Counted from the first letter of the stretch, positions 40,229-58,275 are shown. The stretch: DNA of 64,000 nt from a virus (IMGVR_UViG_3300044655_001017), one strand, 5' to 3'. The notes: generated by a model not told the origin, from the letters alone. Program-made: numbers and translations.

Positions 40229-40732
40229 ACTAACTCCACTGTGTGTATACTGTATATATCACTGTGACGCCACTGTAGAGGTAGGGTGCGGGCCGAAAGG
40301 GTCCTAGGGGTCTAAAAAATTTCCCGCGCAAAAAATTAGAGAGAAGTACTTACAGATTCTCCCTGGTGATTTAGTACCTATGGGGTTAAATTTAGAGGAG
40401 TTTTTAGAGTTTTTAGAGTTTAGGGAAAAAAGGTTGCGTTGTTGTAAAAAAACAACAAATTGTTGTATTATATGTCCCCCCACCCCTCGGGGCATTGTAT
40501 TGCGTTACACTATTATAGCACACTACACACTACATTGCAAGCTTTTTTTACGCAAAAAACTAAAAAAATAAAAAAATAATTTAACATTTTTTTAAAAAAA
40601 CGCTTGCTATTTTTTTAAATTACTGTATAATATGCTGTAAGTTAAGTAGTTAAGCAGTTTACTTAACTAGCGCACTAAATGTGTGCATACACGTTTAGTG
40701 CTACATTATACGCACTAAAAAAGGGCATAACT

Positions 40733-41113
40733 ATGTTAGACAATATTACAGTACAAAGCATTGCAAGTAAAAGCAACAAAACCGTGCAATGTGTAGGGGT
40801 TAGCACGCACGAAAAAGCGACAATAGGCACTAAGATACGTTTTAGCGGTAAGCCCGATAGTAGTGCGCGTGTTAGCACGCTAATTGCAACAAAATTGCAC
40901 AGCGACATAATTATGTGCGATTTAAGTGCGCAGGTTAGCGAATTGCAAGGCGCGGTTATAGTGCGCGATACGTTAGCAGATACAGACTACTTGCAAGCGC
41001 ACCAATTAAGTGCAATAGATAGCTACATTGCTAAATACAGTACGCACGAAATTAGTGCAGCACGGGAAAACATTAGCAATAACAATATTAAAATTGTTAA
41101 AATACTAATGTAA
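40733..41113 (+). CDS. Early protein, K(I/V)RF...H(S/T)DI family, copy 1
   Basis: Own promoter and terminator; paralogue of 43310..43693 and 48826..49179. Confidence 0.7.
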   Translation: MLDNITVQSIASKSNKTVQCVGVSTHEKATIGTKIRFSGKPDSSARVSTLIATKLHSDIIMCDLSAQVSELQGAVIVRDTLADTDYLQAHQLSAIDSYIAKYSTHEISAARENISNNNIKIVKILM

Positions 41114-41125
41114 CACAGTAACACA

Positions 41126-41158
41126 GCAACTACACTGCAAAGTGTAGTTGCTTTTTTA
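41126..41158 (+). terminator. Rho-independent terminator
   Basis: agcaactacact-gcaa-agtgtagttgct-ttttt. Confidence 0.85.
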
Positions 41159-41327
41159 CTTGCTTTTTTAGTTTGTTTATGCTATAATAACGCATAGTAA
41201 AAAGTTAAAATAAAAAGCTATAGCGGGGCCGTCGGTGGCCAAGACAGACTGGATTTGAAAAGGCCGGAACCGAAACCACTATCCGATAGCTCTCCAAGTA
41301 TCTACCATAGCTCTCCACCTAGACCTC

Positions 41328-41366
41328 ACTGTATCCTTACTGTATCCTTACTGTATCCTTACTGTA
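41328..41366. repeat. 11-bp tandem repeat (ACTGTATCCTT x3.5)
   Basis: Directly visible; reads AAGGATACAGT on minus. Confidence 0.9.
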
Positions 41367-41407
41367 CCGGCAACAGGTGCTATATTAGTATAGCACCTTT
41401 CCCCACC

Positions 41408-41557
41408 TTAGTCAACTAAGTCTTTAAACCGTTTTATCTTACTAGTAAAGCGTGCCGCGTGTTCCTTACGTGTAAGGCTAAGCACGGTAACAAACGCTCC
41501 GCTTAATGCGTATGCGTTTCGTTTATATATGTAACCATAATAGTTGTTTGTTTGCAT
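41408..41557 (-). CDS. Small early protein (49 aa)
   Basis: ATG after promoter and ACAGCGTG leader. Confidence 0.55.
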   Translation of the reverse strand: MQTNNYYGYIYKRNAYALSGAFVTVLSLTRKEHAARFTSKIKRFKDLVD

Positions 41558-42153
41558 AGTATGTTGCACGCTGTAGTTGTTTAGTAAGTGCATATTATAG
41601 CACGCTACACAAAAAATGCAAGCATTATTTTTACAAACAATAACCACACACAACCACCTATCCATAACCCCAATTTTCAAATATCTCACAGCGGGGCCTT
41701 TATAAAAGTGGTCACTTATGGCAAATGGATACAAGCGGTAAGCACTAACGCAAATTTGCGTTTTAAGCGTTGTTTGTTGTGTACTGCTATAGTTGCATTG
41801 CTTAGTATATAAACGCGTATTGTGTACACGTTAACGCGCAAGTTTTAGCAATGTAAATTATAAATGCTAAGTGTATTTTACACGCGCACGACAAATATTA
41901 AAAGTTTACAGCGGGGTATTGATATACCGGTTGCTCATTATGCTATACTATAGTATAATATTGGTATATTGAAACGTTGGTAAGATGGTAAAGAGGTTGA
42001 GGGCAGAGATAAGGGAAAGCCCGGTCCATTGCATACTGGATTCCGGGCTTTGGGCATACTATGTAAGTATGTTGTATGGTTGGTGAACAAATGCTACTAC
42101 CCATCTGCCCACCTGAGGTCTTTAGTCTTTACAGCGGGGCCTTTCTATAGGTC

Positions 42154-42231
42154 CTACTTTGTTTTGCGTCTAATTACTCGACGGCATGCGATTGTACTTT
42201 TTTTGGTTGCGCGATCGGATCTTCTTGCCAT
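42154..42231 (-). CDS. 25-aa basic peptide MARRSDRATKKSTIACRRVIRRKTK
   Basis: Promoter at 42278-42305, GGAGA RBS; absent from ORF track. Confidence 0.45.
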   Translation of the reverse strand: MARRSDRATKKSTIACRRVIRRKTK

Positions 42232-42338
42232 GTTGTTCTCCAGTGTTGTTGTAAAAAAGTATTTAACGTTTTAACTATTATACTATAGTGTTAAAGTAAA
42301 TGCAAGCACTTTTTACAGTGCTTGCATTGTGTTATTGT

Positions 42339-42698
42339 TTAATTAACAGTGCTATTTTGCACTTGTTTAACATACTTATTAAATGTTTTTTTAGTAACAC
42401 ATTTTATGTAAGCGTTGTTAATTTGCATTTGCGTTAAATTAGCGTTATTTGCTAGCGTTACTGTATAGCTAACACTGTAATTGCTAGCAAAGTTAATGTT
42501 AGCAACAAAAGCACTGCTAACATAGCATAACACATAATTTTTAGCTGCTTTGTATATTGTACGCTTTGCGTGTTTTTGCTTTGTTGCTATTACTTTGTTA
42601 TTAGCTACATAAGCGTTAAGCACTTGTAACATAGCTTGTTGCGTTGCTTTGTTACTGTTTTTTTGCGCTTGTTTGCGCGTTGCTGTAATTGTTTGCAT
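42339..42698 (-). CDS. Early protein (119 aa) with no Asp, Glu, Gly, Pro or Trp
   Basis: Own promoter (42765-42792) and terminator (42299-42328). Confidence 0.6.
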   Translation of the reverse strand: MQTITATRKQAQKNSNKATQQAMLQVLNAYVANNKVIATKQKHAKRTIYKAAKNYVLCYVSSAFVANINFASNYSVSYTVTLANNANLTQMQINNAYIKCVTKKTFNKYVKQVQNSTVN

Positions 42699-42805
42699 AA
42701 TATACACACTATAGTTAAATTGTTAAAAAGCGTATGTTAAACGTAATTGCTTAACACAGTGCATATTATACACGTTTGTGTACAATATGCAAGCGTTATT
42801 TTTAA

Positions 42806-42982
42806 TTATTTTAGCAGTGCATCAAACGCTCCGCAAAACCCTGCAAACGCTATTGTTATCGGAGTAGCAACCAGCATCCACGTTACCGCGTCCACCATGA
42901 AGTTCATAACTCCATATTGCGTGTTACGCGCGTTTGCTTGTTTGTTTAAAAAATTTTGTACTGTTTGTTGTTTAGTTTGCAT
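42806..42982 (-). CDS. Small early membrane protein (58 aa)
   Basis: Promoter 43019-43046; hydrophobic C-half. Confidence 0.55.
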   Translation of the reverse strand: MQTKQQTVQNFLNKQANARNTQYGVMNFMVDAVTWMLVATPITIAFAGFCGAFDALLK

Positions 42983-43309
42983 AGTAGTAAGCACGCTGTT
43001 GTTGTTTAGTAAGTGCATAGTATAGCACGTTTAAAAATAATTGCAAGCTTTATTTGTATATTGTTTTCCGGTTGCCCAACACCTGCGAAGCCGGGGGGGG
43101 GGGGTGGTTGGTCGGTCTGTCCGATTGCCTAGCGGTCTAGTCCGGCTCTGTGGTGTGCATAGTATAGCACGTTTGTGTTGTAATTGCAAGCACTTTTTTA
43201 TTTAATTTTAGCATAGTAGTTTGCACGCTGTAGTTGTTTAAGTAGTGCATAGTATAGCATAGTTAAAACAAAAACGCAAGCACTTTTTACAGTGCTTGCG
43301 CTTGCTATG

Positions 43310-43693
43310 TTATTTAAGCACTGCTATTATTTGCACGTTATTAGTGCTTAATTCGTCTTGTGCATTGCTTTGCTCTTGTGCATTAAACTTATTTACAAAA
43401 GCTTGCATTGCACTATTTTGTTGCTCGTTATGATGTTCGCCTTGTTGTAGTGCAACAAGTGTTGCAGCTAATTCCGTGCATTGCACGTTTAAAGTGTAAA
43501 ATACTATATCGCTATGCTCTTTTGTTGCTAAAAGCGTGCTTACGCGTGCTTGCGCTGTTTTATCTGTAAAGCGTACTTTATAACCTATTGTCGCTTTAAC
43601 GTGCAAGCTTGCGCCTACTGCTATTACTTTTTTAGTGCTTGCGTTAATGCTGTTAACTACAATGTTTTGCACGCTAATGTTGCTGTTTGTCAT
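43310..43693 (-). CDS. Early protein, KVRF...HSDI family, copy 2
   Basis: GGAGCG RBS, tandem promoters, terminator 43274-43300. Confidence 0.7.
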   Translation of the reverse strand: MTNSNISVQNIVVNSINASTKKVIAVGASLHVKATIGYKVRFTDKTAQARVSTLLATKEHSDIVFYTLNVQCTELAATLVALQQGEHHNEQQNSAMQAFVNKFNAQEQSNAQDELSTNNVQIIAVLK

Positions 43694-43975
43694 TTTCTCG
43701 CTCCGAGTGTTGCACTAAAATAGTGCTATTAGTTAATACTGCTGTTTGTTACTACAAGTGCTATTATACGCTGTTTATTTGCACTTGTAAAGCGTTTTTT
43801 TAAAATACTTTTAAAACGCTTTTTTGTTGCACTGCTTTACTACAAAAACTATTATACGCTTTTTTGCGTAAATGTAAAGCGTTTTTTTATTTTATTTTTT
43901 GCTTGCATTTACTGTTTTATTGTGTTATAATAGCGCAAGCGTAAAGCCCGCGCTACCGGTTCTCTCTATACCGCC

Positions 43976-44173
43976 TTACCTCATATCGCTGTCCGCCGCT
44001 TTATCACAGCGTGTCGCATATCCGGTGAGCACCGACTCATTCAACTTATCGAGGAGTTGAACTTCCATTGCCCGGTGTTGTTGGCACTCAGCTAGTGTTG
44101 GATATATGAATGTGTTATCAATTTCCTGCGCCCCAATAAACATCATCACTTTCAATATATATAATGCTTCCAT
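43976..44173 (-). CDS. Small early protein (65 aa)
   Basis: Promoter 44221-44249, GGAGCA RBS. Confidence 0.6.
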   Translation of the reverse strand: MEALYILKVMMFIGAQEIDNTFIYPTLAECQQHRAMEVQLLDKLNESVLTGYATRCDKAADSDMR

Positions 44174-44264
44174 TGTTCTTGCTCCGCTTGTTACGTTAGC
44201 TTTATTGCTAACTTGCATATAGTATAGCAAACTATTAAACTATATGCAAGTGTTTTGTTTTCGA

Positions 44265-44438
44265 CTAGTCCACTAATGCACTTGCTCTAAGATCCACAAA
44301 GTTCGCATACTTCATTGTGTCTTTTGTTTCTCTGCGCTCACGTAGTAGTGCAGTCCGGGCACGCTCGACTTCTCTGCGGGTCTGTACACCAATTAGTCTT
44401 GCGCTCAACACTGCCGTATATTCTTGTACCGGTTTCAT
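44265..44438 (-). CDS. Small basic early protein (57 aa, MKPVQEYTAV...)
   Basis: AGGAG RBS; absent from ORF track. Confidence 0.55.
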   Translation of the reverse strand: MKPVQEYTAVLSARLIGVQTRREVERARTALLRERRETKDTMKYANFVDLRASALVD

Positions 44439-44501
44439 TCTATGCTCCTAATGGTTTCAAAAGTTCGTTGTTGTCAGCACGTCCATGTGCCCTGTGTTAG
44501 T

Positions 44502-44801
44502 TTATAGTCCGTACATTTCAGCTACGCTGTTTGCCACACGTCCGTCGTTACCCCATTGTACTTTAATGCAACCCGGATGTTCATTGCCCAGTGCTGCCAA
44601 CTTAGCAAGTGCCAATTCCCAGTTGTTTAGTTTGTCTACTGGTTTCGGAGCGTCAGCACTTGTAAAGTAGTTAGCTGGTGGTACCTTACGTTCCGGAACA
44701 TTGCTTTTACTTGTTTTCACTTTGCCGCCTGCTTCCAAAAACGCTTGTACTGCATTGTTTGTTGCTGTGTTTTTTGCTTGTTTGTTTGTATTAGTAAACA
44801 T
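44502..44801 (-). CDS. Early protein with SutA-like RNAP-binding motif
   Basis: NAVQAFLEAGGKVKTS. Confidence 0.55.
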   Translation of the reverse strand: MFTNTNKQAKNTATNNAVQAFLEAGGKVKTSKSNVPERKVPPANYFTSADAPKPVDKLNNWELALAKLAALGNEHPGCIKVQWGNDGRVANSVAEMYGL

Positions 44802-44976
44802 AATTTGCACGCTGTAGTAGTGTTAACAGTTAAACGTTATTGCTTAACTTGCATATAGTATAGCAAAGCAAAACTGGTATGTAAAGCGTTTTTTTTAAGT
44901 GTTGTTTCCATTGTGCCCACGCGTGTACACATAAACAGCGGGGCCTTTTCGGCACTTCCCTGTGCCGTTGTATCCG

Positions 44977-45318
44977 TTATAGTCCCGATCCGCATAAGCA
45001 GTTATACACAAACTCAGCATCCTGTAATGCCACATTGTTTATGTAATCCACTAAGTCCTTGTGCTCCTCTACTTCCTCTACAAACGCTTGTACCGCAGCA
45101 TCATCGTTCCACAAGTCATCATGTGCTTCGTAATGTCTGTTGTATATTGTTACCATTTGCGCAATTATATGCACCGGATGTTCAGTAGTGCCCCACTCCT
45201 CCGCATAGTTCTCGTCCGCCAACATAAACACTGTACTTGTTACGCTGGGAGTTAGCGGGTACTTGCTTGTGTTTGCGTTTGCTGTGTTAATTTTTGTTGC
45301 TGTAGTAGTATTTTGCAT
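44977..45318 (-). CDS. Early acidic protein, tandem duplicate A
   Basis: YNRHYEAHDDLWNDDAA shared with 45487..45834. Confidence 0.7.
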   Translation of the reverse strand: MQNTTTATKINTANANTSKYPLTPSVTSTVFMLADENYAEEWGTTEHPVHIIAQMVTIYNRHYEAHDDLWNDDAAVQAFVEEVEEHKDLVDYINNVALQDAEFVYNCLCGSGL

Positions 45319-45486
45319 AGTTAGCACGCTGTAGTTATAAGTTAGCTTAATTGCTAACTTGTACATATTATAGCACGTTTAAACATTTTGTAAAGCGTTT
45401 TTTTAAGTTTTGTTTTCGCTGTTACCATACGCGTGTACACATAGCAGCGGGGCCTTTCCGAGCACGTCCATGTGCTCTGTGTTATC

Positions 45487-45834
45487 TTACAAGCCCGAGC
45501 AACATAAGCAATCATACACAAACACTGTGTTCTGTAATGCCACATTGTTTATGTAATCCACTAACTTCGCATTGTCCTCAACTTCCTCTATACACGCTTG
45601 CATCGCAGCATCATCGTTCCACAAGTCATCATGTGCTTCGTAATGTCTGTTGTATATCTCTGCTATCTTTAATACTATGTGTGTCGGATGTGTCGTTGTG
45701 CTCCACTCCTCCGCAAAGCTCGCATCCGCCAACAGTGCCAGCACACTTGTTTTGCTCGGATAGTACCCGGGCAATTTGCTTGTGTTTACGTTTTGTGTGT
45801 TAATTTTTGTTGCTGTAGTAGTATTAGTTTGCAT
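45487..45834 (-). CDS. Early acidic protein, tandem duplicate B
   Basis: Paralogue of 44977..45318 including promoter and 3' elements. Confidence 0.7.
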   Translation of the reverse strand: MQTNTTTATKINTQNVNTSKLPGYYPSKTSVLALLADASFAEEWSTTTHPTHIVLKIAEIYNRHYEAHDDLWNDDAAMQACIEEVEDNAKLVDYINNVALQNTVFVYDCLCCSGL

Positions 45835-46013
45835 AATAAGCACGCTGTAGTAGTGTTAACAGTTAAGCGTTATTGCTTAACTTGTACATAGTATAACACG
45901 TTTAAACATTTTGTAAAGCGGTATTTTAGAGTATTGTTTCCGACATAACCGGGGGGGGGGTGGTCGGTCGGTCTGTCAGATTGCTTGGCACTTCCCTGTG
46001 CTCGATATATCAG

Positions 46014-46385
46014 TTATGCCATTATGCTCGCTACTTCAGTGTATCGTTGTTTCAATCTTTCGATCATATGGAGTAAGTCGACATTAAAGACTAAGTCATA
46101 TACATCGCTTTCCGTTGTACTCACTATACCAATTGCACTCGTGTAATGGAGTTGTTCGACTATAGTCGTTACAGTCGTTACATCTATTTTCAATTGTTTC
46201 GATACTTCGGCTAGTAACACTTTCGAAACTGTCTTGCGATCTCTGTCCGCTAGTCTATGAAACCCTTTTGCCAACATCCTTGCAACATCGGTATTTTGGC
46301 GTATCGTTGCACCAATGCTATCGTTATGCTCGTGTAACTCGTTTAAAAACTTAATATGGTTTCTCAATACTGTTTGGATAATCAT
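46014..46385 (-). CDS. Hypothetical early protein
   Basis: 123 aa, GGAGCG RBS. Confidence 0.65.
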   Translation of the reverse strand: MIIQTVLRNHIKFLNELHEHNDSIGATIRQNTDVARMLAKGFHRLADRDRKTVSKVLLAEVSKQLKIDVTTVTTIVEQLHYTSAIGIVSTTESDVYDLVFNVDLLHMIERLKQRYTEVASIMA

Positions 46386-46450
46386 TATGCGCTCCAGTTA
46401 ATCAGTTAAGTACGCGCATACTCGATATATGCGCGTGTAAACAGCGGGGT

Positions 46451-46717
46451 CTATTGGCGTGCTTTGATTGCCGATTGCACCTGCTTGTTCAACAGCCCAA
46501 TTGCCGCTAGCTCCTCTTTAGCTTGTTCCCATGTGTATCGTTGTTTCTCTACTACAACTACGCGGGGAGTATGGACTTGTGATACTGTAGTGCGTCCTCT
46601 GCGTCCTGTTTTAGTTGTTTTAATTGCTCCTCCGGTTGCTAAGAACATTGCCACGCGAGCCGCTAACTCCGCTGCTTGTTGTTGTTTAACTTCGTTGTTC
46701 ATAATACCTGTTGCCAT
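46451..46717 (-). CDS. Early protein with SutA-like RNAP-binding motif
   Basis: LAARVAMFLATGGAIKTT; GGAGCG RBS. Confidence 0.55.
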   Translation of the reverse strand: MATGIMNNEVKQQQAAELAARVAMFLATGGAIKTTKTGRRGRTTVSQVHTPRVVVVEKQRYTWEQAKEELAAIGLLNKQVQSAIKARQ

Positions 46718-46878
46718 TATACACGCTCCGCTTTATCGTTAATGTCAGTTTCTTCAGTTTGCTCACAATCCCAACATGGTTCAAGCTCATCTGTTTCCAT
46801 GTTGTATAGTACAGTCAAGTCCCCACACGTAGTGCAATACGCGCGTAGTGGGTAAGTGTTTTTGTATTGTACTTGCAT
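46717..46878 (-). CDS. Small Zn-ribbon-like protein (53 aa)
   Basis: CTTC...CWDC; promoter 46912-46940. Confidence 0.55.
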   Translation of the reverse strand: MQVQYKNTYPLRAYCTTCGDLTVLYNMETDELEPCWDCEQTEETDINDKAERV

Positions 46879-46983
46879 AATTTTTACACGCTGTTTTGTT
46901 AATGTGTGCATATTATAGCATTGTAACACGCGCATTGCAAGTAGTTTGTTAACCGCAATGCGCGTGTACATAAGCAGCGGGGC

Positions 46984-47400
46984 CTATACGGTAGTTACGA
47001 GCAACAAGTTGTCCAACACATCCGCTTTAGCTCTGTATACCATGTTGCCGTGTCTCGTATGCTCAATTACAATCCCATTTGCCTCACACCACAAGTCCAA
47101 ACGCGCTGCTCTTAAGCTCACTTTATCTTTAAACTGTGGTTTGTTGACTTTAACGGCAATAAACTTTTTTCTGTAGTTCATAAACACGTTGCTCTGTATA
47201 TACACATCCTCAATGTGTGCTAACAACGCTTCCCCTGCGCTCAATTGCACTAAGCTATACAAACTCTCATTCTCAGCGTCTCTGCGTTTAATATCCTCTA
47301 AGCACACGTAAGCTGGAAGTTTGACGTCATCCGATGTGTGTGATACAGCGTGTACAATAGCAGTAGCTGTGTTTTTGAGTAATTTAGTAGTTGTTGACAT
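46984..47400 (-). CDS. Hypothetical early protein
   Basis: 138 aa, GGAGCG RBS, own promoter. Confidence 0.65.
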   Translation of the reverse strand: MSTTTKLLKNTATAIVHAVSHTSDDVKLPAYVCLEDIKRRDAENESLYSLVQLSAGEALLAHIEDVYIQSNVFMNYRKKFIAVKVNKPQFKDKVSLRAARLDLWCEANGIVIEHTRHGNMVYRAKADVLDNLLLVTTV

Positions 47401-47505
47401 ATGATACGCTCCGAAAGTTATGTTAAGTTTTAAACAGTTAGCTGTTTTGCTAACTTGTACATATTATAGCAAACTAAGTACAAGTTAGCAAGTGATATTT
47501 TTGAA

Positions 47506-47694
47506 CTATAGTTCCACTAGCTCGCCGCGTGCTACTGCGTCCGCAGCTTCTAGTTCCTCTTTATAGAACTTGTTGATAGCATTGTTTGTTTCGAGATACG
47601 ATTTGGAGTTTTTGGCTTGTGTACGCAATTGGCGTGTGAGCATGTTAATGTATTTGATACGCGCGGCGCTTGTGATGTAAAGTATTTTTTGCAT
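47506..47694 (-). CDS. Small early protein, NSKxYLE family
   Basis: NSKSYLETNNAINKFY; paralogous to 48161..48418. Confidence 0.6.
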   Translation of the reverse strand: MQKILYITSAARIKYINMLTRQLRTQAKNSKSYLETNNAINKFYKEELEAADAVARGELVEL

Positions 47695-47793
47695 AATATA
47701 CACGCTATAGTTATAAGTTAGCTTAATTGCTAACTTGTACATATTATAGCAAACTATATACAAGTTAGCAAATGGTATTTTAGAACTTTGTTT

Positions 47794-48066
47794 TCACCCT
47801 TCCGGATAGCAACCAGCTTCCATCATTGCATAGATAACTCGTTCTCTTGGTAGAGTATCTTGATATACCAGCGAGTTGATTAACTGATCGTAGTCGCCGC
47901 TTTTCATATAACTGATTAAACACTTTTGGTTGTACTTGCCATCTTCAATTGCCAAGTCCATAAAGTCCCACTCATCTGCTTCGGCATACTCTTTTGCTTG
48001 AGCATTGAAGTCGGTAACACATTGTTTGAGGGTAGCGATTACAACAGGATTAGTAGTGTTTGGCAT
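47794..48066 (-). CDS. Hypothetical early protein
   Basis: 90 aa, own promoter. Confidence 0.65.
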   Translation of the reverse strand: MPNTTNPVVIATLKQCVTDFNAQAKEYAEADEWDFMDLAIEDGKYNQKCLISYMKSGDYDQLINSLVYQDTLPRERVIYAMMEAGCYPEG

Positions 48067-48418: not shown

Positions 48419-48587
48419 AGTAGTTTACACGCTTGTTGTTAAGTAAGTGCATATTATACTATAGTATGCACTGGTTGTCAAGAACTTTATATTCACCCGC
48501 GCTCGCACACGCGTAAACAGCGGGGTCTATCCGGGGGGGGGGAGGTCGGTCGGATTGGCCGGTTATTCGCTGCCCCCAATCTATCGG

Positions 48588-49179: not shown

Positions 49180-49273
49180 ATTGTACGCTCCAAAAAATAG
49201 AAAAGTTAAGTTGTTTTACTGCTAGTTAGCTAACGCGCTTGTTAGCTAACTTGTTACATATTATACAGCATTT

Positions 49274-49507
49274 TTAAAACATTGCAAGCATTTTGTTTTC
49301 TCTTGCTTCAAGTATTGCATCAATACGCGCCTCAACACTCTCTGCGCTCTCAAGTGTTGTCCAGCCGCCGTTGTTGTGGCGTCCATCTTGTACTGAAGTT
49401 TCCATAATTCCTGTGTTTCTATTTTTATACTCCGACACTGTGATAGTAGTGTTAAAGTAGATAGTAACGATGTTGTTGCTTGTTGTAGTAATTTTTAATT
49501 TATACAT
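49274..49507 (-). CDS. Hypothetical early protein (77 aa)
   Basis: Own promoter, GGAGCG RBS; 3' end carries next -35 box. Confidence 0.6.
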   Translation of the reverse strand: MYKLKITTTSNNIVTIYFNTTITVSEYKNRNTGIMETSVQDGRHNNGGWTTLESAESVEARIDAILEARENKMLAMF

Positions 49508-49577
49508 AATACGCGCTCCGCATTGTTGTTTAACTTGTACATAGTATAGCAAACTTATTTTGGTTTGTAAAGAAGTT

Positions 49578-49667
49578 TTAAATCACTAGCTCATACCAGT
49601 TCAATACAGCGATTGCGCTCAATAATACGATAGTAGTGAATACTGCGAATGTGTGTATAAACGACAT
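49578..49667 (-). CDS. 29-aa hydrophobic peptide
   Basis: TTGACA promoter and AGGAGC RBS; single TM-like stretch. Confidence 0.45.
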   Translation of the reverse strand: MSFIHTFAVFTTIVLLSAIAVLNWYELVI

Positions 49668-49737
49668 TTTGTTTGCTCCTCATATATATAGTACACGCAT
49701 AGTATAGCAAACTACATACAGGTTGTCAACTGGTTTG

Positions 49738-50304
49738 TTACTCGGTGTATGCCGCCATTACCAATCCCACATAGTTCTGAGTCTCCGGATATGGTGGAAC
49801 CTTATTCTTATGCCGCATCACCGCATGCTCGCCCGCATTGTAACCGGCTACTGCTAGTTTGGTATCTTTGAATGTATCGAGCAAGAACCTTAGGAACCGA
49901 ACTCCACCTTCAATGTTCTGTCTTTCATCCATCCGATCACTCACTCCAAATCGCTCTGCCGTTGCCGGCATCAGCTGCATCAATCCAGCCGCACCTTTCT
50001 TACTTACAGCCGATTTGCGATATGTACTTTCCGTTTTAATGACTGCATGTACCAACTTCTCATCCACTCCATACTTCTTTGCAGCGATATGAACATAGTG
50101 ATTGACTTCCCATCGGGTTAATGGTTTGGTCTCCGGTTTCGCTACTATAGTAGTATGAACAACTGGTTTGGCTGCAGTATTGATCTCAACCGGATGATCT
50201 GTTAACCAAACTCGCCCATCCGCTCCCGTATATCTATATACATCCGCATTCACCGGCATTACTACTATAGTAGCGAGAATGGCAGCGCGGATCATTTGGC
50301 GCAC
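49738..50304 (-). CDS. Lytic transglycosylase (SLT) with signal peptide and DUF4124-like N-domain
   Basis: AVIKTES catalytic Glu, GAAGLMQLMP, AGYNAGE, PPYPETQNYV; DVYRYTGADGRVWLTD. Confidence 0.92.
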   Translation of the reverse strand: MRQMIRAAILATIVVMPVNADVYRYTGADGRVWLTDHPVEINTAAKPVVHTTIVAKPETKPLTRWEVNHYVHIAAKKYGVDEKLVHAVIKTESTYRKSAVSKKGAAGLMQLMPATAERFGVSDRMDERQNIEGGVRFLRFLLDTFKDTKLAVAGYNAGEHAVMRHKNKVPPYPETQNYVGLVMAAYTE

Positions 50305-50588
50305 TCTGCTGCGAACTTAACCATTGCTGCATACTCTGGATTGGCTACAGCGGTGACTACATGAGTAAGTAAATGAGCAATCATTGTAATCCCACCGATC
50401 CATGCTACGATCATTACACATGCATAGGTAAACGCATCCGATCCATTGAACTCATCTTTTAATAACTTAAACAGATAGTATGATCCAGCTAATACTCCAG
50501 ATATTACTACTATAGCGGCAATGTCTGGAATGGTGTCTATAATAGCTTGCTTTGCCAATAACTCTTGTGGTACATTGCATAACTTCAT
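50292..50588 (-). CDS. Two-TM membrane protein
   Basis: 98 aa, own promoter, GGAGCG RBS. Confidence 0.6.
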   Translation of the reverse strand: MKLCNVPQELLAKQAIIDTIPDIAAIVVISGVLAGSYYLFKLLKDEFNGSDAFTYACVMIVAWIGGITMIAHLLTHVVTAVANPEYAAMVKFAAECAK

Positions 50589-50989
50589 AACGCGCTCCGC
50601 AGTTGTTGTTTAACTTGTACATATTATAGCATACACAGCGGGGTCTGTAAAGAACTTTGTTACTCGTATACGCCCACTTGTATGTGCGCGTGTAGCGTGT
50701 TATATTATAAGCGCATAGCATACTATAGTATAAGTATGCTCACGCACTATAGCGCATTTATACGCGATATACGCTATGATACACTATAGTATAATAATAA
50801 GCGCATATACACATATGAGTAACTATGCACAGCGGGGCCTTTTATAGGTCCAGGACTCGATAATAACTCGTCATCTTCGGTTTTTGGCCCGCGTCGTTAG
50901 CGGTCTGCAACACCATGATTTTGCCGTTTTTCACGTTTATAGACCGACCTAGTACCAGAGTACAGGGTCCGGTTAAAAAGAATAAGAAA

Positions 50990-51104
50990 AAGCTCACTTT
51001 AGGGAGCGAATCTAAAGTGAGCTTATAGAGTTACTATAGTATAGGGAGCGAATCTATACTATAGTATATAGAGTATAGTTGGGAGCGAATCAACTATACT
51101 CTAT
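50990..51104. ncRNA. Three tandem hairpins with identical 11-nt loop (candidate regulatory RNA element)
   Basis: Perfect 12-13 bp stems of different sequence around GGGAGCGAATC at 51002, 51044, 51081. Confidence 0.6.
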
Positions 51105-51121
51105 TCATATGCGCGTTATTA

Positions 51122-52000
51122 TTATCTATGTGGGCGCATACAAGTTACAGAAGCTACTGCTTCCCAGTTAGTTGGCATTGCTTTACGCAAATCTGCTACT
51201 TTAAGAACCATACGCAAACTCAATTCACGCATTTTCTTTCTGTGTGTATCGATGTAGTTGAGGATCTCTTCAGCTTCATCTTCTTGGAATTCATACTTGT
51301 CTAGCATACCGTCGCTTACGATTTGCTTAATACGCAACATCTTTTCGCGTTCTGTGTCTATAGTAAGATCTAAGTAGTGGCAACGCGACTCTAATGCTTC
51401 TAAATGATCTTGCAATTTCTTGCTACGAACATGATCAAACTTAACATTTGTAATGAATATACAGCCGCCTTCAAAGTCAAAACTATTTGGAATACCTGCG
51501 TCCTTTAGTATGCGTGACTCTGTGTGCCAACTGATAGTACGCTTACGCCCAGTATCCAATGCTGCTTTGAGCAAGTTGAGCGCAATATCATCAAACAATA
51601 CACTATCGCAGTCGTCAAACACTACGATACACTTCTTGTCCTTATAGTCCCACAGCATTTGATATAAACATAATGCACTGATGTTACCTTTTGCTATAGT
51701 GTACTTCTTTAAGGTTTCATCTTGTGCTACATTGGCGAACACATCATAACGCGATAACACTGTTTCTACACCGTGTGATTTGCCTACTCCAGGTGGTCCA
51801 CTTACGATCATAGCGCGAACATCACCTTTCTTTACTGCACGAGTCATATCATCTAGTATGGCAAACCGTGTGCGCAACCGTTCTACAATCTCTTCGTCCG
51901 TTTCGTGTGATACATGTTCAGCCGGTCTTTGCGCTATAGTACGGTTGGTCTTGATTGTGTCTACGGTGATCATTTGTGGTCTTGCTACTGTTTGTTGCAT
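51122..52000 (-). CDS. AAA+ ATPase
   Basis: SGPPGVGKS, VFDDCD, IFITN, ALESRC; TTGACA promoter at 52033-52061. Confidence 0.85.
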   Translation of the reverse strand: MQQTVARPQMITVDTIKTNRTIAQRPAEHVSHETDEEIVERLRTRFAILDDMTRAVKKGDVRAMIVSGPPGVGKSHGVETVLSRYDVFANVAQDETLKKYTIAKGNISALCLYQMLWDYKDKKCIVVFDDCDSVLFDDIALNLLKAALDTGRKRTISWHTESRILKDAGIPNSFDFEGGCIFITNVKFDHVRSKKLQDHLEALESRCHYLDLTIDTEREKMLRIKQIVSDGMLDKYEFQEDEAEEILNYIDTHRKKMRELSLRMVLKVADLRKAMPTNWEAVASVTCMRPHR

Positions 52001-52065
52001 ACTTGCTCCGCATTGTGTGTTAGTAAGTGTTTATTATACTATAGTATAGTATGACTGTCAACTGG

Positions 52066-52251
52066 TTATCTAATCATTAGCGATATACATACACCAGTTA
52101 TCAATGGCACTAGATATATAGGTTCATGTGTTTCAATGTAGCCAGCTGCTCCTACACTGACTAATACAGTGACTAATCCAATCCAAAATACTGCTAATAT
52201 TGCTCCAATTACTACTATAAAAAAAGCTAATGAGAATATCGAACCTATCAT
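52066..52251 (-). CDS. Small membrane protein (61 aa)
   Basis: Hydrophobic; own promoter and GGAGCG RBS. Confidence 0.55.
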   Translation of the reverse strand: MIGSIFSLAFFIVVIGAILAVFWIGLVTVLVSVGAAGYIETHEPIYLVPLITGVCISLMIR

Positions 52252-52500
52252 TGTTGCGCTCCTACGTTGTTTAACTGTTATGCACATTATAACACACTGC
52301 TTTGAACATTGCAAGCACTTTTTTGGCACAATTTTACCACTGTAATACAACTGTAATGATATAGTAGGAATGGGTGGTTGGGCGGCATAGCTACAATAAA
52401 TACCCCATTGTTTTCCACAAAACCCCTCATATCCCCTGTAACCACCATAGGCCTCCTCTATTGTTTACCAAATAGTGCCACGTGTGCCGCAGGCCTAGCT

Positions 52501-52735
52501 TTCATCTCTATACTATAGTGTTTACTATAGTCAGGGTTCTCGTATACGCTACTATAGAGAATCTCTATAATTCTTATACTATAGCGTGTATCATTAGTGT
52601 TATCACTATAGTCTATATTACTGTGTGTATAGCGTGGATATGTGTTACTGTTTGTTATTATACTATAGTTGTTTATGATATGTAAAGGATTATTATTGGG
52701 TTTATTATCACTATAGTCTATACTACTATAGTATG
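52501..52735. repeat. AT-rich non-coding region with 8 ACTATAG repeats
   Basis: Copies at 52512, 52524, 52551, 52578, 52605, 52662, 52710, 52725. Confidence 0.8.
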
Positions 52736-52791
52736 CAATGGATAAGTTGCTTTCTTTTTGTTTTGCTACAAATATGTTGCTTTTTTATGGA

Positions 52792-53055
52792 TTATACATA
52801 ACGTCCGGGACTTCTAGTTGGAAAAGGATAATCTCTCACCGGAACAGCTGTGTATGTCAAATCAATCAAGTGAATAAGTTTAGCAGATACATTATCAGAT
52901 CTCCATGGATCTAGATTCTCAAACTTACCACTATATATGATTTCAAACATAGTAGGGAATCGCCAGTCGTATTTGTCTTTGTGTGTGCAAGTAATAATGA
53001 ATAAGAACGCATCGTCTTGTGTCGTTTGGTATAAGTGGGGAGCAAGTTCAATCAT
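52792..53055 (-). CDS. Mini Lcl/DUF1566-like protein 23
   Basis: TCTHKDKYDWRFPT...PVRD. Confidence 0.7.
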   Translation of the reverse strand: MIELAPHLYQTTQDDAFLFIITCTHKDKYDWRFPTMFEIIYSGKFENLDPWRSDNVSAKLIHLIDLTYTAVPVRDYPFPTRSPGRYV

Positions 53056-53267
53056 AAGGTTCTCACTGGGATTACATAGAGTACATAATATTCTTGTAGA
53101 ACTTGAAATCTACCTTCATGCCAAGCTGATGTAAACTGAAAACTTTTATATTCGTTAGCTGTTGGTAGTCGCCAGTCCTTATGGCCATTGTAGTCAAGTG
53201 TAATACAGTATAGCCAAGCTTCGTCATAAGTTATTTCTTGTTGTGTTTGTAGGGCTAGTTCAATCAT
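53052..53267 (-). CDS. Mini Lcl/DUF1566-like protein 22
   Basis: YDEAWLYC..DWRLPT...PVRT. Confidence 0.7.
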   Translation of the reverse strand: MIELALQTQQEITYDEAWLYCITLDYNGHKDWRLPTANEYKSFQFTSAWHEGRFQVLQEYYVLYVIPVRTL

Positions 53268-53428
53268 TTGCTTACTCTTGTGGGTACTGCTATAAAAAGG
53301 GTGTGACGACCTGAGACGTCTAAGCAGTGTATCCAATCATAGTGTCCATCGTGTGTACAGGTATAACAATAAAGCATCGCTTCGTCATATAACAAGGGTT
53401 CGCTCCGTGGGGCGTATTCAAGCGTCAT
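53264..53428 (-). CDS. Mini Lcl/DUF1566-like protein 21 (degenerate, lacks RLPT)
   Basis: YDEAMLYCYTCTHDGHYDW then diverges. Confidence 0.55.
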   Translation of the reverse strand: MTLEYAPRSEPLLYDEAMLYCYTCTHDGHYDWIHCLDVSGRHTLFIAVPTRVSK

Positions 53429-53643
53429 AAGTCTCTTATAAGTCGTATTATCTTCCAATCTTGGTTTGTACTATTTCTCGATAAGTAGGGTATATCGACA
53501 AATCCATTAGTGTCGGTTAGTTCGCGAATAGATGCTGGCCTCCAGTCGTATTTGCCATTATGGGTACATGTAGCCGAGTATAGCCAAATCGAGTCTTGGT
53601 TCCAGTCATATAAATCGCTAATAGGGGATAGTTCGTGTTTCAT
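53425..53643 (-). CDS. Mini Lcl/DUF1566-like protein 20
   Basis: TCTHNGKYDWRP...LIRD. Confidence 0.7.
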   Translation of the reverse strand: MKHELSPISDLYDWNQDSIWLYSATCTHNGKYDWRPASIRELTDTNGFVDIPYLSRNSTNQDWKIIRLIRDL

Positions 53644-53855
53644 ACGTCTCTCACTGGGGTTACATATGTTTGGTGATCGAAATAGTCTCGCTCATACCAC
53701 TGTCCGAGTATCAGAGGTTGATACTTTCTTCCAAAGTGTTCTAGCATCGTAGGCATGCGCCAATCATATTTCTTTTTATGGGTGCAAGTGGCTACATATA
53801 GCCAAGCTTCGTCATATGAGAAGTCACGTCGTTTAGTAGTAGCTTGTTCAATCAT
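53640..53855 (-). CDS. Mini Lcl/DUF1566-like protein 19
   Basis: YDEAWLY..TCTH..YDWRMPT...PVRD. Confidence 0.7.
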   Translation of the reverse strand: MIEQATTKRRDFSYDEAWLYVATCTHKKKYDWRMPTMLEHFGRKYQPLILGQWYERDYFDHQTYVTPVRDV

Positions 53856-54045
53856 CTCTTGATCCTCTTACTGGGCAGAATTGTATGTTGCGACGTTGCT
53901 CTGTTGTTCTTAGTTTAACATTGCTGGAGAAGTCGCCAGCAGTTGGCATTCGCCAGTCATACTTGTTGTTGTGTGTACAAGTTATCGCATATAAGAATGC
54001 TTCGTCATATGGCATTAAATGTGACATAGGGGCTGCTTCAATCAT
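53848..54045 (-). CDS. Mini Lcl/DUF1566-like protein 18
   Basis: YDEAFLY..TCTHNNKYDWRMPT...PVR. Confidence 0.7.
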   Translation of the reverse strand: MIEAAPMSHLMPYDEAFLYAITCTHNNKYDWRMPTAGDFSSNVKLRTTEQRRNIQFCPVRGSRDD

Positions 54046-54262
54046 CTTTAGTTCTCACAGGGGATACCTTCCACATATATGGTACCATTGTCTTACGATT
54101 AAAATCACTAGCATTCCAACTACCGGTTATAATCAAGTCTGCACATTCTTTTATAGTAGGCATTCGCCAGTCGTATTTGTTTTCGTGTGTGCAAGTGTAT
54201 ATGTATAGTTCGGCGTTATAGGCATCTAGTTTGGCGGTAGTCTTAGGGGCTTGTTCAATCAT
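54038..54262 (-). CDS. Mini Lcl/DUF1566-like protein 17
   Basis: TCTHENKYDWRMPT...PVRT. Confidence 0.7.
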   Translation of the reverse strand: MIEQAPKTTAKLDAYNAELYIYTCTHENKYDWRMPTIKECADLIITGSWNASDFNRKTMVPYMWKVSPVRTKDD

Positions 54263-54456
54263 ATAGTTCTCACTGGGGTTACATAGAACCATTCGGATGG
54301 TTGTGAAAAACTATACTTGAGAATATTAGGGTACACTGATACATCTCCAATAGTAGGATATCGCCAGTCATACTTGTTGTTGTGAGTACAAGTAACGCAG
54401 TATAGCCAAGCTTCGTTATAAGAGAGTACCTGGAATTCAATAGCAAACTCAAGCAT
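54259..54456 (-). CDS. Mini Lcl/DUF1566-like protein 16
   Basis: YNEAWLYC.TCTHNNKYDWRYPT...PVRT. Confidence 0.7.
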   Translation of the reverse strand: MLEFAIEFQVLSYNEAWLYCVTCTHNNKYDWRYPTIGDVSVYPNILKYSFSQPSEWFYVTPVRTI

Positions 54457-54673
54457 CTGTATCCCTCACTGCTATTAAAATAAAGCGGTCGAGTGGCTCT
54501 ATATATGGACTTTTGATTAGTGAATCACACCATATTGGACCATCTGTAAGTTTTACGCATTCATCGCGTGTTGGGAAACGCCAATCGTACTTGTTTTCGT
54601 GTGTTAGTGTCCAAATGTAAAGTTCAGCTTCTTCACACGATTTTGAGTGTGATAAAATTTTAGCTTCAATCAT
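54449..54673 (-). CDS. Mini Lcl/DUF1566-like protein 15
   Basis: THENKYDWRFPT..E...AVRD. Confidence 0.7.
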   Translation of the reverse strand: MIEAKILSHSKSCEEAELYIWTLTHENKYDWRFPTRDECVKLTDGPIWCDSLIKSPYIEPLDRFILIAVRDTDA

Positions 54674-54890
54674 CTTTATCTCTCACTGGGTGTATGTACC
54701 ATGCAACACCTGCGTAACGATAAGTCTCATAAGGCAGATGGAACCAATGCGAATCCATATTATATATTGAGCATTCAGTAAACGTAGGTATTCGCCAATC
54801 ATACTTGTTGTTATATGTTAAGGTAGCACAGTATAGCCAGGCTATATCATACGAACACTTTGTCTTATGCTTTGTTGCTTGTTCAATCAT
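54666..54890 (-). CDS. Mini Lcl/DUF1566-like protein 14
   Basis: YNNKYDWRIPT..E...PVRD. Confidence 0.7.
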   Translation of the reverse strand: MIEQATKHKTKCSYDIAWLYCATLTYNNKYDWRIPTFTECSIYNMDSHWFHLPYETYRYAGVAWYIHPVRDKDD

Positions 54891-55110
54891 CTTTATCTCT
54901 CACTGGGTAAACTGCTCTTTCTAAATCCTTATTGTTATAGTCATACCAGGTGCTATGCCAGGTCAGAGGAGGCATCTCATCAGTGTCATCATATTCTGCT
55001 GATGTCGGAAACCGCCAGTCATATTTGTTGTTGTGGGTTAGGGTATAGATGTATAACATTGCTTCGTCTATTGTTACAAAGCAGTCGTCATGTGGTCCTA
55101 ATTCAATCAT
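54883..55110 (-). CDS. Mini Lcl/DUF1566-like protein 13
   Basis: THNNKYDWRFPT..E...PVRD. Confidence 0.7.
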   Translation of the reverse strand: MIELGPHDDCFVTIDEAMLYIYTLTHNNKYDWRFPTSAEYDDTDEMPPLTWHSTWYDYNNKDLERAVYPVRDKDD

Positions 55111-55334
55111 ATAGTTCTCACTGGGATCAATGCGCATTTCATATCATCCAACTGACCCATAAGATCATGCTGATGCCAACATACTGGGCGTTTGGGTAGA
55201 GCAGGCGTAGCGTGCCGTAGTTCCATTATAGTAGGGAGCCTCCAATCGTAGTGATTGTTATAGGTTAGCGTCATCGTGTATAGTTCAGCTTCATCTATAG
55301 TAACAAACTTGATCATAGGTGCTTGTTCAAACAT
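55107..55334 (-). CDS. Mini Lcl/DUF1566-like protein 12
   Basis: YNNHYDWRLPTIMEL...PVRT. Confidence 0.7.
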   Translation of the reverse strand: MFEQAPMIKFVTIDEAELYTMTLTYNNHYDWRLPTIMELRHATPALPKRPVCWHQHDLMGQLDDMKCALIPVRTI

Positions 55335-55545
55335 CTTTATCTCTCACTGGAATTACATAAAGTTCCATCCATAGGACCATATCGGGTATTCTATCAATAT
55401 GCCAAGTAGTAGCTGGGAAGTGGTTGTGTTCTTTTGATGTAGGCATACGCCAGTCATATTTTCGTCTATCGGTACAGGTATAACAATACAGCAATGCTTC
55501 GTCATACTCTAATTGTTGTGCTGATTGGTATCCTGTTTCAATCAT
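55327..55545 (-). CDS. Mini Lcl/DUF1566-like protein 11
   Basis: YDEALLYCYTCT..KYDWRMPT...PVRD. Confidence 0.7.
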   Translation of the reverse strand: MIETGYQSAQQLEYDEALLYCYTCTDRRKYDWRMPTSKEHNHFPATTWHIDRIPDMVLWMELYVIPVRDKDV

Positions 55546-55760
55546 ATATCTCTCACTGGGTAAACAAGCATTTGGCTAAGACTAGAACTAAGATAGTACG
55601 GGTTCGTCCAGCCGCTATAGTTTCGCATTTGATGGCTATTCATTTCCTTCCAAGTAGGCAATCTCCAATCTCTATATCCGTTATGTTCTAGTGTAATACA
55701 GTATAGCCAGGCTTCATCTAATATTAGTGTATGAGATGAGCATGGGCCTATTTCTAACAT
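55542..55760 (-). CDS. Mini Lcl/DUF1566-like protein 10
   Basis: DEAWLYC..LEHNGYRDWRLPT..E...PVRD. Confidence 0.72.
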   Translation of the reverse strand: MLEIGPCSSHTLILDEAWLYCITLEHNGYRDWRLPTWKEMNSHQMRNYSGWTNPYYLSSSLSQMLVYPVRDI

Positions 55761-55969
55761 TTATCTCTTACCAATATCAGATGCATTAGGTCAATGTCTG
55801 GATCTTGGAATGCTGGAGAATCAGTCCATGACCATCCAATGCCTATGTTATAGGTCTCTTGATAAGTAGGAAACCTCCAGTCGTTATGTCCGTTGTGTGT
55901 ACAAGTTAGCATATAAAGAAAAGCTTGGTTATATGTTAGGTTACATTCTATAGGTGTTCCTTCAATCAT
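55754..55969 (-). CDS. Mini Lcl/DUF1566-like protein 9
   Basis: TCTHNGHNDWRFPT..E...LVRD. Confidence 0.7.
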   Translation of the reverse strand: MIEGTPIECNLTYNQAFLYMLTCTHNGHNDWRFPTYQETYNIGIGWSWTDSPAFQDPDIDLMHLILVRDKC

Positions 55970-56180
55970 TCTTATCCCTCACTGGTACTACATACCATGC
56001 TCTGCGCCAGTCTGGCTTAGTTTCATACCACACTCCACTAACTAGAGCTAAATCAAAATACTCAGCTCTAGTTGGTAATCGCCAATCATAATATCCCTTA
56101 TGGTCACATGTTAAACAGGTTAAGAATGCATCGTCGTATTCGATAATGCCTCTTTCTAATTTTGGTCCAAACTCTAACAT
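55962..56180 (-). CDS. Mini Lcl/DUF1566-like protein 8
   Basis: CDHKGYYDWRLPTRAE...PVRD. Confidence 0.72.
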   Translation of the reverse strand: MLEFGPKLERGIIEYDDAFLTCLTCDHKGYYDWRLPTRAEYFDLALVSGVWYETKPDWRRAWYVVPVRDKND

Positions 56181-56434
56181 ACATCTCTCACTGGAATAAC
56201 TTTAGCTTTAAAGGGAACCACTGACCTGTTATCTAAATCAAACATTTCAAACAATGGGTCACGTACTGTGGTTTCAGTCCACACTAATATTACTTCTCGG
56301 TTTAGTATTTGTCTCATTTGAGGTAGTTCTTCAAATGTAGGCAAGCGATAACCCTTTTGGAAGAATATGTGCATCAATGCTTCGTTTTGTGTAGAATGTT
56401 CAAGCCATAGTTCTTTAGGTGCTAGTTCTATCAT
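56174..56434 (-). CDS. Mini Lcl/DUF1566-like protein 7
   Basis: KGYRLPTFEEL...PVRD. Confidence 0.65.
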   Translation of the reverse strand: MIELAPKELWLEHSTQNEALMHIFFQKGYRLPTFEELPQMRQILNREVILVWTETTVRDPLFEMFDLDNRSVVPFKAKVIPVRDVC

Positions 56435-58218: not shown

Positions 58219-58236
58219 AATGTTTCCTTAAAGAGG

Positions 58237-58271: not shown

Positions 58272-58275
58272 AATG

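Follow-up and report, generated by a model that had tools for sequence, protein, structure and literature searches.

Motifs are known to be purged from viral sequences that must work early: the first-expressed regions of phages T5 and T7 are free of restriction sites, and CpG is depleted from viral RNA against ZAP. Phage DpdA systems place 7-deazaguanines at GA in Pseudomonas phage iggy (PMC10484667) and at GA and GGC in CAjan (PMC7544227), and 7-vinyl-, 7-ethynyl- and 7-phenyl-7-deazaguanine nearly abolish initiation by the RNA polymerases (RNAPs) of E. coli and B. subtilis, an effect attributed to the G of the -35 box (PMC4838386). The primary site of Rho comprises six clefts, one for each YC (TC or CC), and single YC mutations lower termination (PMC5314796); coding strands poor in pyrimidines give protection from Rho (PMC13323073). 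CmdT modifies the A within GA of mRNA (PMC11618068) and DarT2 targets TNTC in single-stranded DNA (PMC12945103). Here we describe a cassette of small early genes at 40.4-48 kb of a 64-kb stretch of IMGVR_UViG_3300044655_001017 (37% G+C; hereafter the window), a freshwater jumbo myovirus. GA, GG, TC and CC are banned from defined parts of this cassette. The banned GA and GG equal the cores of the published DpdA motifs. Some reader of exactly these steps must act in the infected cell, the likeliest being a guanine modification of the phage or a host factor such as Rho.

We write GR for GA and GG and YC for TC and CC, and call a stretch with none of the four on either strand a tract. Together the four make up 15.6% of the dinucleotide steps of the window. 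A sequence-only reading of the window had listed eight tracts (232, 582, 155, 201, 242, 141, 158 and 150 nt), and each lies exactly where it was placed, with zero occurrences. Six more of 99-159 nt are the other five tracts of that length in Table 1 and 49201-49299. The longest free run, at 582 nt, compares with ~54 nt expected in the window, and the chance of finding none of the four in it is (1-0.156)^582, ~1e-43; the earlier estimate of 70-90 such dinucleotides expected there was right, our figure being 87. Composition-preserving shuffles of each tract gave 12-87 occurrences, and in 20,000 trials none reached zero. When every strand-symmetric set of one or two dinucleotide classes is compared, {GA/TC, GG/CC} stands far apart from the rest, its longest run being 10.7 times that expected, against 2.0 times for the next unrelated set. 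The single duplex rule proposed from the sequence is therefore real and symmetric within the tracts. A literature search found no published precedent for a complete ban on 4 of the 16 dinucleotides.

The ban is confined to a small part of the window. Only two free runs of at least 60 nt lie outside 40-52 kb, and the sliding observed/expected ratio per kb that had been suggested as a check, run over the window, is 0.37-0.70 at 40-50 kb against 0.8-1.0 elsewhere. The TTGACA boxes cited as marking the edge of the bias and the core of the genome (48476, 49724 and 52056; 6306 and 31568) are all correctly placed, and TTGACA or TGTCAA occurs once in 40.4-48.4 kb, 19 times in the first 40.4 kb and 14 times in the last 15.6 kb. 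Between the cassette units, every few hundred bases, come GC-rich elements with many GG and CC; the ban thus attaches to particular functional parts and not to the region as a whole. The tracts have a G+C of 0.28-0.33 and are enriched about twofold in the GC dinucleotide.

Comparison with relatives reveals that the rule is under selection. In the IMG/VR contig G001 (176 kb, ~94-96% identical in flanking genes) the copy of tract 40492-40723 carries 60 substitutions and 30 indel columns yet remains free over 229 nt, an outcome never reached in simulations of random substitution. Homologues of the 119-residue protein of gene 42339-42698, at 81% and 68% identity, share its restricted alphabet (no D, E, G, P or W), and the gene of the 68% homologue, in L199, has 96 of 357 nt changed and no GR or YC, and the tract around it extends for at least 561 nt. 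Tracts that have diverged by 26-27% and remain at zero show that selection maintains the rule. G002, a complete genome of 372 kb with terminal repeats, encodes homologous cassette proteins at 30-58% identity. Here {GA/TC, GG/CC} is again the most anomalous set, and 16 of the 21 free tracts of at least 60 nt fall at 47.4-54.7 kb, the homologous cassette; the 169 kb of G001 outside its cassette hold only two. The rule is real, local, conserved and selected.

More distant relatives were found by alignment of one cassette protein, and several of them have a one-strand form only, with ~590-920 nt of coding strand devoid of TC and CC. In G007 (353 kb, 98% complete) a 922-nt island of this kind retains a GGAG Shine-Dalgarno (SD) sequence and TTGACA -35 boxes, and ~40 TTGACA-N17-TATAAT promoters occur genome-wide. 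The double-strand form is found in a clade made up of the window, G001, L150, G002 and L199. In our reading the message-strand ban on YC is older and wider, and what is specific to this clade is the ban on both strands, along with -35 boxes lacking GA and leaders lacking SD sequences. G003 and G005 have neither tracts nor cassette proteins; a GA/GG-free run in G005 proved to come from tandem repeats within a fibre-like coding sequence, a different phenomenon.

The promoters of the cassette carry the ban in their recognition elements. A sigma70-type consensus was matched at 22 minus-strand and 3-5 plus-strand sites, and these predicted promoters combine an A-tract UP element, a -35 box (TTGCAA, TTGCAT, TTGCTA or TTTACA), a 16-17 bp spacer, TGC or TGT, and TATAAT or TATACT. 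Matches to the extended -10 pattern give TGC or TGT in all 22 minus-strand early promoters and a GA-free -35 in 20 of them, which bears out the claim that the -35 boxes avoid TTGACA. The units are free of GR and YC from ~-38 (some from ~-200) to between +60 and +125. The tracts had been said to cover promoters, leaders and first codons; they do, and they also take in terminators and one whole gene, since promoter, gene 42339-42698 and terminator form a complete unit wholly within the 582-bp tract. The terminator hairpins inside tracts are composed of allowed steps only. Antisense promoters were considered as the cause of the both-strand purge and rejected, as good plus-strand promoters occur only at 40.6-43.9 kb and none in the 44-48 kb array.

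The leaders are equally distinctive. They open with a perfect hairpin, and in eight genes (41621-47771) the SD sequence is replaced by (A/T)AGCGTG(C/T), N6-9 and ATGCAA(A), followed by CA-rich codons. The same signal stands in G002 at 51,927 and 54,638, and the (A/T)AGCGTG(C/T) element may be an SD-independent translation start signal. The first 20-23 codons are limited to T, N, Q, K, A, I and similar residues.

Promoters outside the cassette are of other kinds. Those at 6306 and 31568 are canonical TTGACA-N17-TATAAT promoters with GR in their spacers, situated in the structural and replication modules, so the rule does not extend to host-type promoters beyond the cassette. One point of the sequence-only reading needs correction, in that a set of promoters at 49.5-63 kb, here called class A, carries a conserved CC. 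In these the spacer CC lies in TTGCATACCAG, the leader ends in GCGGAGC-N5-7-ATG, which supplies an SD sequence, and the gene bodies are ordinary. A metaplot of GR and YC around all promoters was too heterogeneous to show more than that promoter cores (-30 to -1) avoid message-strand GR in this clade and not in G007.

Beyond the symmetric tracts the ban continues on one strand: in each transcription unit the mRNA has almost no YC, and the template strand correspondingly almost no GR. Runs of 150-640 nt that are free on one strand account for much of 40.5-47.3 kb. The message strand is poor in TC and CC at all codon positions, TC being 0.11-0.45 of its level in reference genes (0.11 at codon positions 1-2 and 0.21 at the 3-1 junction). 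Avoidable GA and GG at codon junctions show no depletion relative to reference genes. The YC-poor strand follows gene orientation, being the plus strand for 40733-41113 and the minus strand for the other genes. A component of the rule is thus tied to transcription, through the RNA, the displaced strand or the template strand. The proposed duplex rule accordingly holds within the tracts but not beyond them, where the ban on YC follows the coding strand alone.

Most likely this is a bootstrapping cassette, a set of genes that work before the cell has been altered and that are invisible to a per-site reader of GR in template DNA or of YC in RNA. The genes are called early because of their promoter and gene architecture. 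As in T5, T7 and the ZAP case, genes needed before countermeasures would be written so that a sequence-specific reader does not see them.

We first consider the phage itself as the source of the reader. No modification genes lie in the 64-kb window. In the relatives G001, G002 and L013 (75-96% identity) we read a cluster in the order polB, two small open reading frames (ORFs), a 543-residue ORF, three small ORFs, a glycosyltransferase-like ORF, a phosphoribosyltransferase (PF00156), FolE and QueE; it spans 4468-11960 in L013 and 183.7-196.1 kb in G002, and in G007 it lies at 139-154 kb. FolE matches PF01227 at 2e-60, and QueE gives weak but specific N-terminal and radical-SAM matches; profiles detected neither QueC nor QueD in the cluster of the relatives. 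The 543-residue ORF of L013 and G002 has no Pfam, NCBIfam, PHROG or PDB sequence match, although its ESM Atlas features resemble TGT/DpdA clusters (0.93 and 0.88) and its structure gives a template-modelling score of 0.81. A Pfam TGT search of G001 returned nothing, that contig beginning just past the DpdA-like gene. The lineage would resemble phages with DpdA systems in having a candidate DpdA-like gene, of predicted TGT fold, beside its polymerase, together with FolE and a probable QueE. It differs from them in that the 543-residue protein matches neither the Pfam TGT nor the Pfam DpdA family, in the presence of the glycosyltransferase and the phosphoribosyltransferase, and in the motif-free promoter tracts, which are undescribed in those phages. 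The phosphoribosyltransferase recalls the step from preQ0 to a nucleotide in toyocamycin biosynthesis. The cluster might make a novel derivative, or the base might arrive in nucleotide form.

Tentatively, we take the reader to be a GR-directed deazaguanine modification made by the phage, with modified GR hindering host RNAP. GR would then be the context of the phage's own DpdA-type 7-deazaguanine hypermodification, which packaged DNA would carry wherever GA or GG occurs, on ~43% of all G. The cassette would be unmodifiable. Unaided host RNAP would recognize its promoters through major-groove contacts to G at -33 and -14, on both strands, and its template strand would be readable before any phage protein exists. 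Its products, including two proteins with a weak RNAP-binding-like motif, would adapt the host machinery to the modified genome. The GA-less -35 boxes, the invariable TGY and the purged DNA between divergent starts fit a promoter-blocking modification, and the loss of YC through gene bodies in which GA and GG return fits a logic of template versus non-template strand. A broader version, in which modification of every G before a purine acts as a transcriptional lock, the unmodifiable cassette unlocks the rest and hypermodification becomes a timing switch for infection, seems to us rather unlikely.

Several observations weigh against a modification of this kind. CAjan is modified at GA and GGC and has no motif-free tracts when tried as a positive control, and G003 and G005 carry the cluster without tracts. 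G007 has the DpdA-like gene, the glycosyltransferase, the phosphoribosyltransferase, FolE and QueE, yet its ~40 TTGACA promoters include some inside its island; a modified G in the -35 box would have to be tolerated there if GR is modified. The cluster is present in all four island-bearing large contigs that were assessed (in part in G001) and also in island-less relatives, so the association carries no weight. In vitro, modified G gave no block to elongation, leaving the template-strand half of the mechanism without precedent (PMC4838386). The conserved CC of class A spacers is GG on the template, and some cassette promoters are followed at once by GC-rich elements dense in GR. The both-strand purge reaches ~+100 to +113 (ATG+60 to +69) in four units, far past the footprint of RNAP, and the coding-strand ban on YC beyond the tracts is not predicted by a model of unmodified promoters alone. 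The sequence-only reading had proposed that virion DNA is modified in these contexts and that early promoters must stay unmodified for host RNAP. Selection, the GA-less promoters and the DpdA-like/FolE/QueE cluster of the relatives speak for that proposal; CAjan, G003 and G005, G007, the coding-strand ban and the class A CC speak against it.

Nearly as likely as such a modification is that the message is what is read, by Rho or by an RNase or RNA-modifying enzyme acting at YC, with a second factor for GR. The strand asymmetry is the natural ground for this proposal, as the YC-poor strand switches with gene orientation, YC is low at all codon positions and junction GA and GG are not depleted; moreover, the island of G007 is YC-free in its mRNA and keeps a normal GGAG and TTGACA. 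Message-strand loss of YC in selected genes (43310-43693, 40733-41113 and the G007 island) is what Rho avoidance through coding-strand composition looks like (PMC13323073, PMC5314796). The leaders, which are unstructured, C-rich, G-poor and SD-less, would be ideal for loading Rho were their Cs not all preceded by purines, and the C-run elements between units resemble rut sites. The tract ends noted above, with leaders of 36-55 nt, are slightly steadier when counted from the start codon than from the transcription start. The arms of a stem are complementary, so a ban on GR follows automatically in the stems of a YC-free RNA. The known cases of Rho avoidance by purine bias differ in that the loss here is total, is confined to a single cassette, rewrites proteins and extends to GA, GG and promoter DNA. 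Nor is the message strand purine-rich within the tracts, GA and GG being absent from them and 45259-45416 holding 17 G against 31 C in the early sense.

An RNA reader leaves parts of the double-strand ban unexplained. It does not account for the avoidance of GR in promoter DNA, -35 boxes and extended -10 elements, for the loss of SD sequences, or for the 125 bp between divergent starts unless read-through transcripts cover them, and it requires two independent readers with exactly complementary targets. Rho needs several YCs over 60-90 nt, which makes strict zeros over hundreds of bases hard to explain, and the SD-bearing, presumably well-translated genes 43310-43693 and 40733-41113 are purged too. 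Candidates for the second cause, that of the GA/GG ban in leaders and first codons, are loss of SD-like sequence in favour of SD-independent translation and escape from a CmdT-type GA-directed mRNA ADP-ribosyltransferase. CmdT and DarT2 are alike in being anti-phage enzymes with GA or TC targets on single-stranded nucleic acid, but neither covers all four dinucleotides, and CmdT could still block translation of an ORF that is only partly purged. A search for RegB (PF10715) in G001, G002 and G007 gave no match, a weak test given that the control genomes gave none either.

A reader of single-stranded DNA could combine both aspects of the pattern. A host or phage enzyme specific for C preceded by a pyrimidine, or for T in TNTC, would attack the non-template strand displaced in early units under very heavy transcription, and both strands where strong promoters hold the duplex open or under negative supercoiling. 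An APOBEC-like deaminase, a DarT2-like ADP-ribosyltransferase or a dC-specific endonuclease like DenB of T4 could play this part. This predicts the strand asymmetry that is seen, with loss on both strands at promoters, and a lesion at each site accounts for strict zeros. We consider it improbable all the same. The template strand in +1 to +110 would stay unexposed, YC-full later genes are equally exposed during transcription and replication, and a G+C of 0.28-0.33 with GC enriched about twofold carries no signature of deamination bias; no such enzyme was identified in this analysis.

Avoidance of restriction sites or CRISPR protospacer-adjacent motifs (PAMs) in the first DNA to enter the cell, by analogy with first-step transfer in T5 and the early region of T7, is very improbable. 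The ban would remove GATC, GANTC, GGCC, CCGG and CCWGG sites and CC and TTC PAMs, but the interleaved GR-dense elements leave the region as a whole unprotected, and the one-strand islands of the relatives cannot shield against readers of duplex DNA. What is avoided here is 4 of the 16 dinucleotides and not a site of 4-6 bp, and the ban is local with dense occurrences between. Kinship with the T5 and T7 regions would call for an uninterrupted stretch without sites at the entering end of the genome; here the tracts are interrupted, and the cassette of G002 is internal, 47-55 kb from the terminal repeat and behind ~20 other early promoters. Across the genome, GR-containing and GR-free four-base palindromes show no distinguishing pattern, and their observed/expected ratios were likewise uninformative as a test of a modification that protects GR sites. 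Avoidance of ultraviolet or oxidative hot spots was rejected by reasoning alone, since TT is abundant in the tracts and per-site rates are too low for strict zeros. An artefact of chance, low complexity, misassembly or repeated promoter modules has a negligible probability: the promoter and leader modules are indeed repeated and IMG/VR contigs do break in the cassette, but matched shuffles never reach zero, the 582-bp tract is unique and holds a conserved ORF, and the region is present in 24 lake-water metagenomes from 24 studies, with diverged copies that keep the rule. The remaining probability falls to some other reader.

The features of the cassette are collected in Table 1.

Table 1. Tracts, genes and other elements of the cassette, with class A promoters for contrast. 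A tract is free of GR and YC on both strands; P(+) and P(-) are predicted promoters on the plus and minus strands.
Feature	Position	Strand	Content
Tract	40492-40723 (232 bp)		Divergent promoter region: P(-) 40512-40540, P(+) 40604-40631; 31.7 expected, 0 seen
DNA between starts of divergent pair	40506-40630 (125 bp)		Free on both strands: 0 against 12.9 expected
Candidate small RNA	40445-40505	-	Driven by P(-) 40540; CCCCGAGGGGUGGGGGG, then intrinsic terminator; end of early region
Early gene, 126 residues	40733-41113	+	Coding strand 0 TC, 4 CC; inverted paralogue of 43310-43693
Tract	41067-41225 (159 bp)		Terminator hairpin and P(+) 41160-41188
Tract	41536-41644 (109 bp)		P(-) 41594-41621, SD-less leader, first codons of gene 41408-41557
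Tract	41738-41890 (153 bp)		Contains hairpin
Longest tract	42241-42822 (582 bp)		P(-) 42765-42792, entire gene 42339-42698, GR-free terminator hairpin, P(-) 42277-42305
Gene of very basic 119-residue protein	42339-42698	-	No D, E, G, P or W
Tract	42913-43067 (155 bp)		P(-) 43019-43046, SD-less leader, first 23 codons of gene 42806-42982
C-run element	43095-43133, 45951-45989, 48533-48571		C10-12 plus ACCGACCAACC in early-transcript sense; repeat family D18
Tract	43153-43353 (201 bp)		P(-) 43161-43189, second P(-) with -35 at 43279, terminator hairpin, 3' end of gene 43310-43693
Early gene, 127 residues	43310-43693	-	SD retained; mRNA 1 YC per 384 nt; 11 GA, 4 GG
Tract	43706-43947 (242 bp)		Tandem P(-) 43763-43791 and 43851-43878 with A-tract UP elements; divergent P(+) 43903-43931
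Tract	44736-44876 (141 bp)		Most of P(-) 44857-44885, leader hairpin, SD-less start, 21 codons of gene 44502-44801
Tract	45259-45416 (158 bp)		P(-) 45367-45394, leader hairpin, SD-less start, 20 codons of gene 44977-45318
Tract	45771-45920 (150 bp)		P(-) 45890-45917, leader hairpin, SD-less start, 21 codons of gene 45487-45834
Tract	46852-46953 (102 bp)		P(-) 46912-46940, SD-less leader, first codons of gene 46717-46878
Tract	47414-47494 (81 bp)		P(-) 47463-47491, leader hairpin; gene 46984-47400 keeps SD
Tract	47675-47774 (100 bp)		P(-) 47743-47771, leader hairpin, SD-less start, first codons of gene 47506-47694
Class A promoters (contrast)	49500-63100	-	Cassette-like -10, TTGCAT-type -35, CC in spacer and at ~-40, GGAG SD

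Genome organization changes at the cassette. From 1 to 40 kb the plus strand carries large ORFs for a tail sheath of 1,126 residues, virion proteins, SSB and helicases, and beyond 40.4 kb follow small genes, mostly on the minus strand, each behind a predicted strong sigma70-type promoter. The sheath shares ~40% identity with its counterparts in the jumbo phages Atu_ph07, Phosso and PA5oct, and the genome is probably ~355 kb, because a 355,155-bp contig encodes one cassette protein. Parts of the cassette, the 119-residue gene among them, appear in contigs from three lake metatranscriptomes, as do late genes; these record presence only. Scans of the window for tRNAs and Rfam families gave no matches, nor did a phage collection searched for near-identical DNA, and an exact 41-mer was absent from IMG/VR.

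Ten cassette proteins searched against Pfam gave sub-threshold matches only, and an AlphaFold2 model of the 119-residue protein was poor (predicted local distance difference test score 43). The proteins of 44502-44801 and 46451-46717, both on the minus strand, share (A/M)FLxxGGx(I/V)K(T), with a variant AFVNNGGTIKR in G002 at 52,586-52,840. Sub-threshold similarity of the two to the RNAP-binding domain of SutA (PF20661; E = 0.027 and 0.038) makes them candidate binders of the host polymerase. Genes 45487-45834 and 44977-45318 are paralogues. Inverted paralogous early genes flank a 2-kb cassette segment in both phages, 40733-41113 (+) and 43310-43693 (-) in the window and 52,033-52,419 (+) and 54,197-54,517 (-) in G002. 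The 582-bp unit is absent from G001, so the content of the cassette turns over quickly between close relatives. IMG/VR contigs L001 and L002 both end inside the cassette, near 47.7 kb of the window, breaks that were probably caused by the repeated promoter and leader modules.

Further elements lie between the units. CAGCGGGGYC occurs ten times, always on the plus strand (41689, 42132, 44936, 45445, 46442, 46975, 48518, 48809, 50636 and 50830), against 0.03 expected. In the early-transcript sense it reads GRCCCCGCUG and stands directly after stop codons or within ~30 nt of them, before the next promoter; it may be a signal for processing, termination or protein binding. The C-run elements, with 10-12 G on the plus strand, read ACCGACCAACCACCCCCCCCCC in the early sense, each directly upstream of an early promoter, and may be rut sites or other strong Rho-loading sites, roadblocks or terminators. 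At 41328-41366 three tandem copies of CACTGTATCCTTA lie in the predicted GC-rich transcript from P(+) 41160, with a terminator-like hairpin beyond at ~41378-41400. The element at 40445-40505 recurs in G002 at 54,700-54,790, matching the cassette boundary there despite cassette protein identities of 30-58%; this conserved boundary, together with CCCCGAGGGGUGGGGGG and a clean intrinsic terminator, makes it a predicted candidate small RNA of the phage.

The ban spans promoters, leaders, coding sequence and terminators, and strips five amino acids from a conserved protein. The cassette is direct evolutionary evidence for a reader at every GR/YC step in the first minutes of infection. If that reader is a 7-deazaguanine modification made by the phage, the DpdA motif of an uncultured phage would be readable from sequence alone, and DNA hypermodification would gain a role in gene timing beyond that of a restriction shield. 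If it is Rho, or a different YC-binding or YC-cleaving factor, such cassettes would mark genes that must be expressed before that factor is disarmed, and new anti-termination or anti-defence proteins would best be sought among their products. Whichever the reader, the cassette is a natural source of 'reader-proof' promoters, leaders (one of them SD-less) and terminators.

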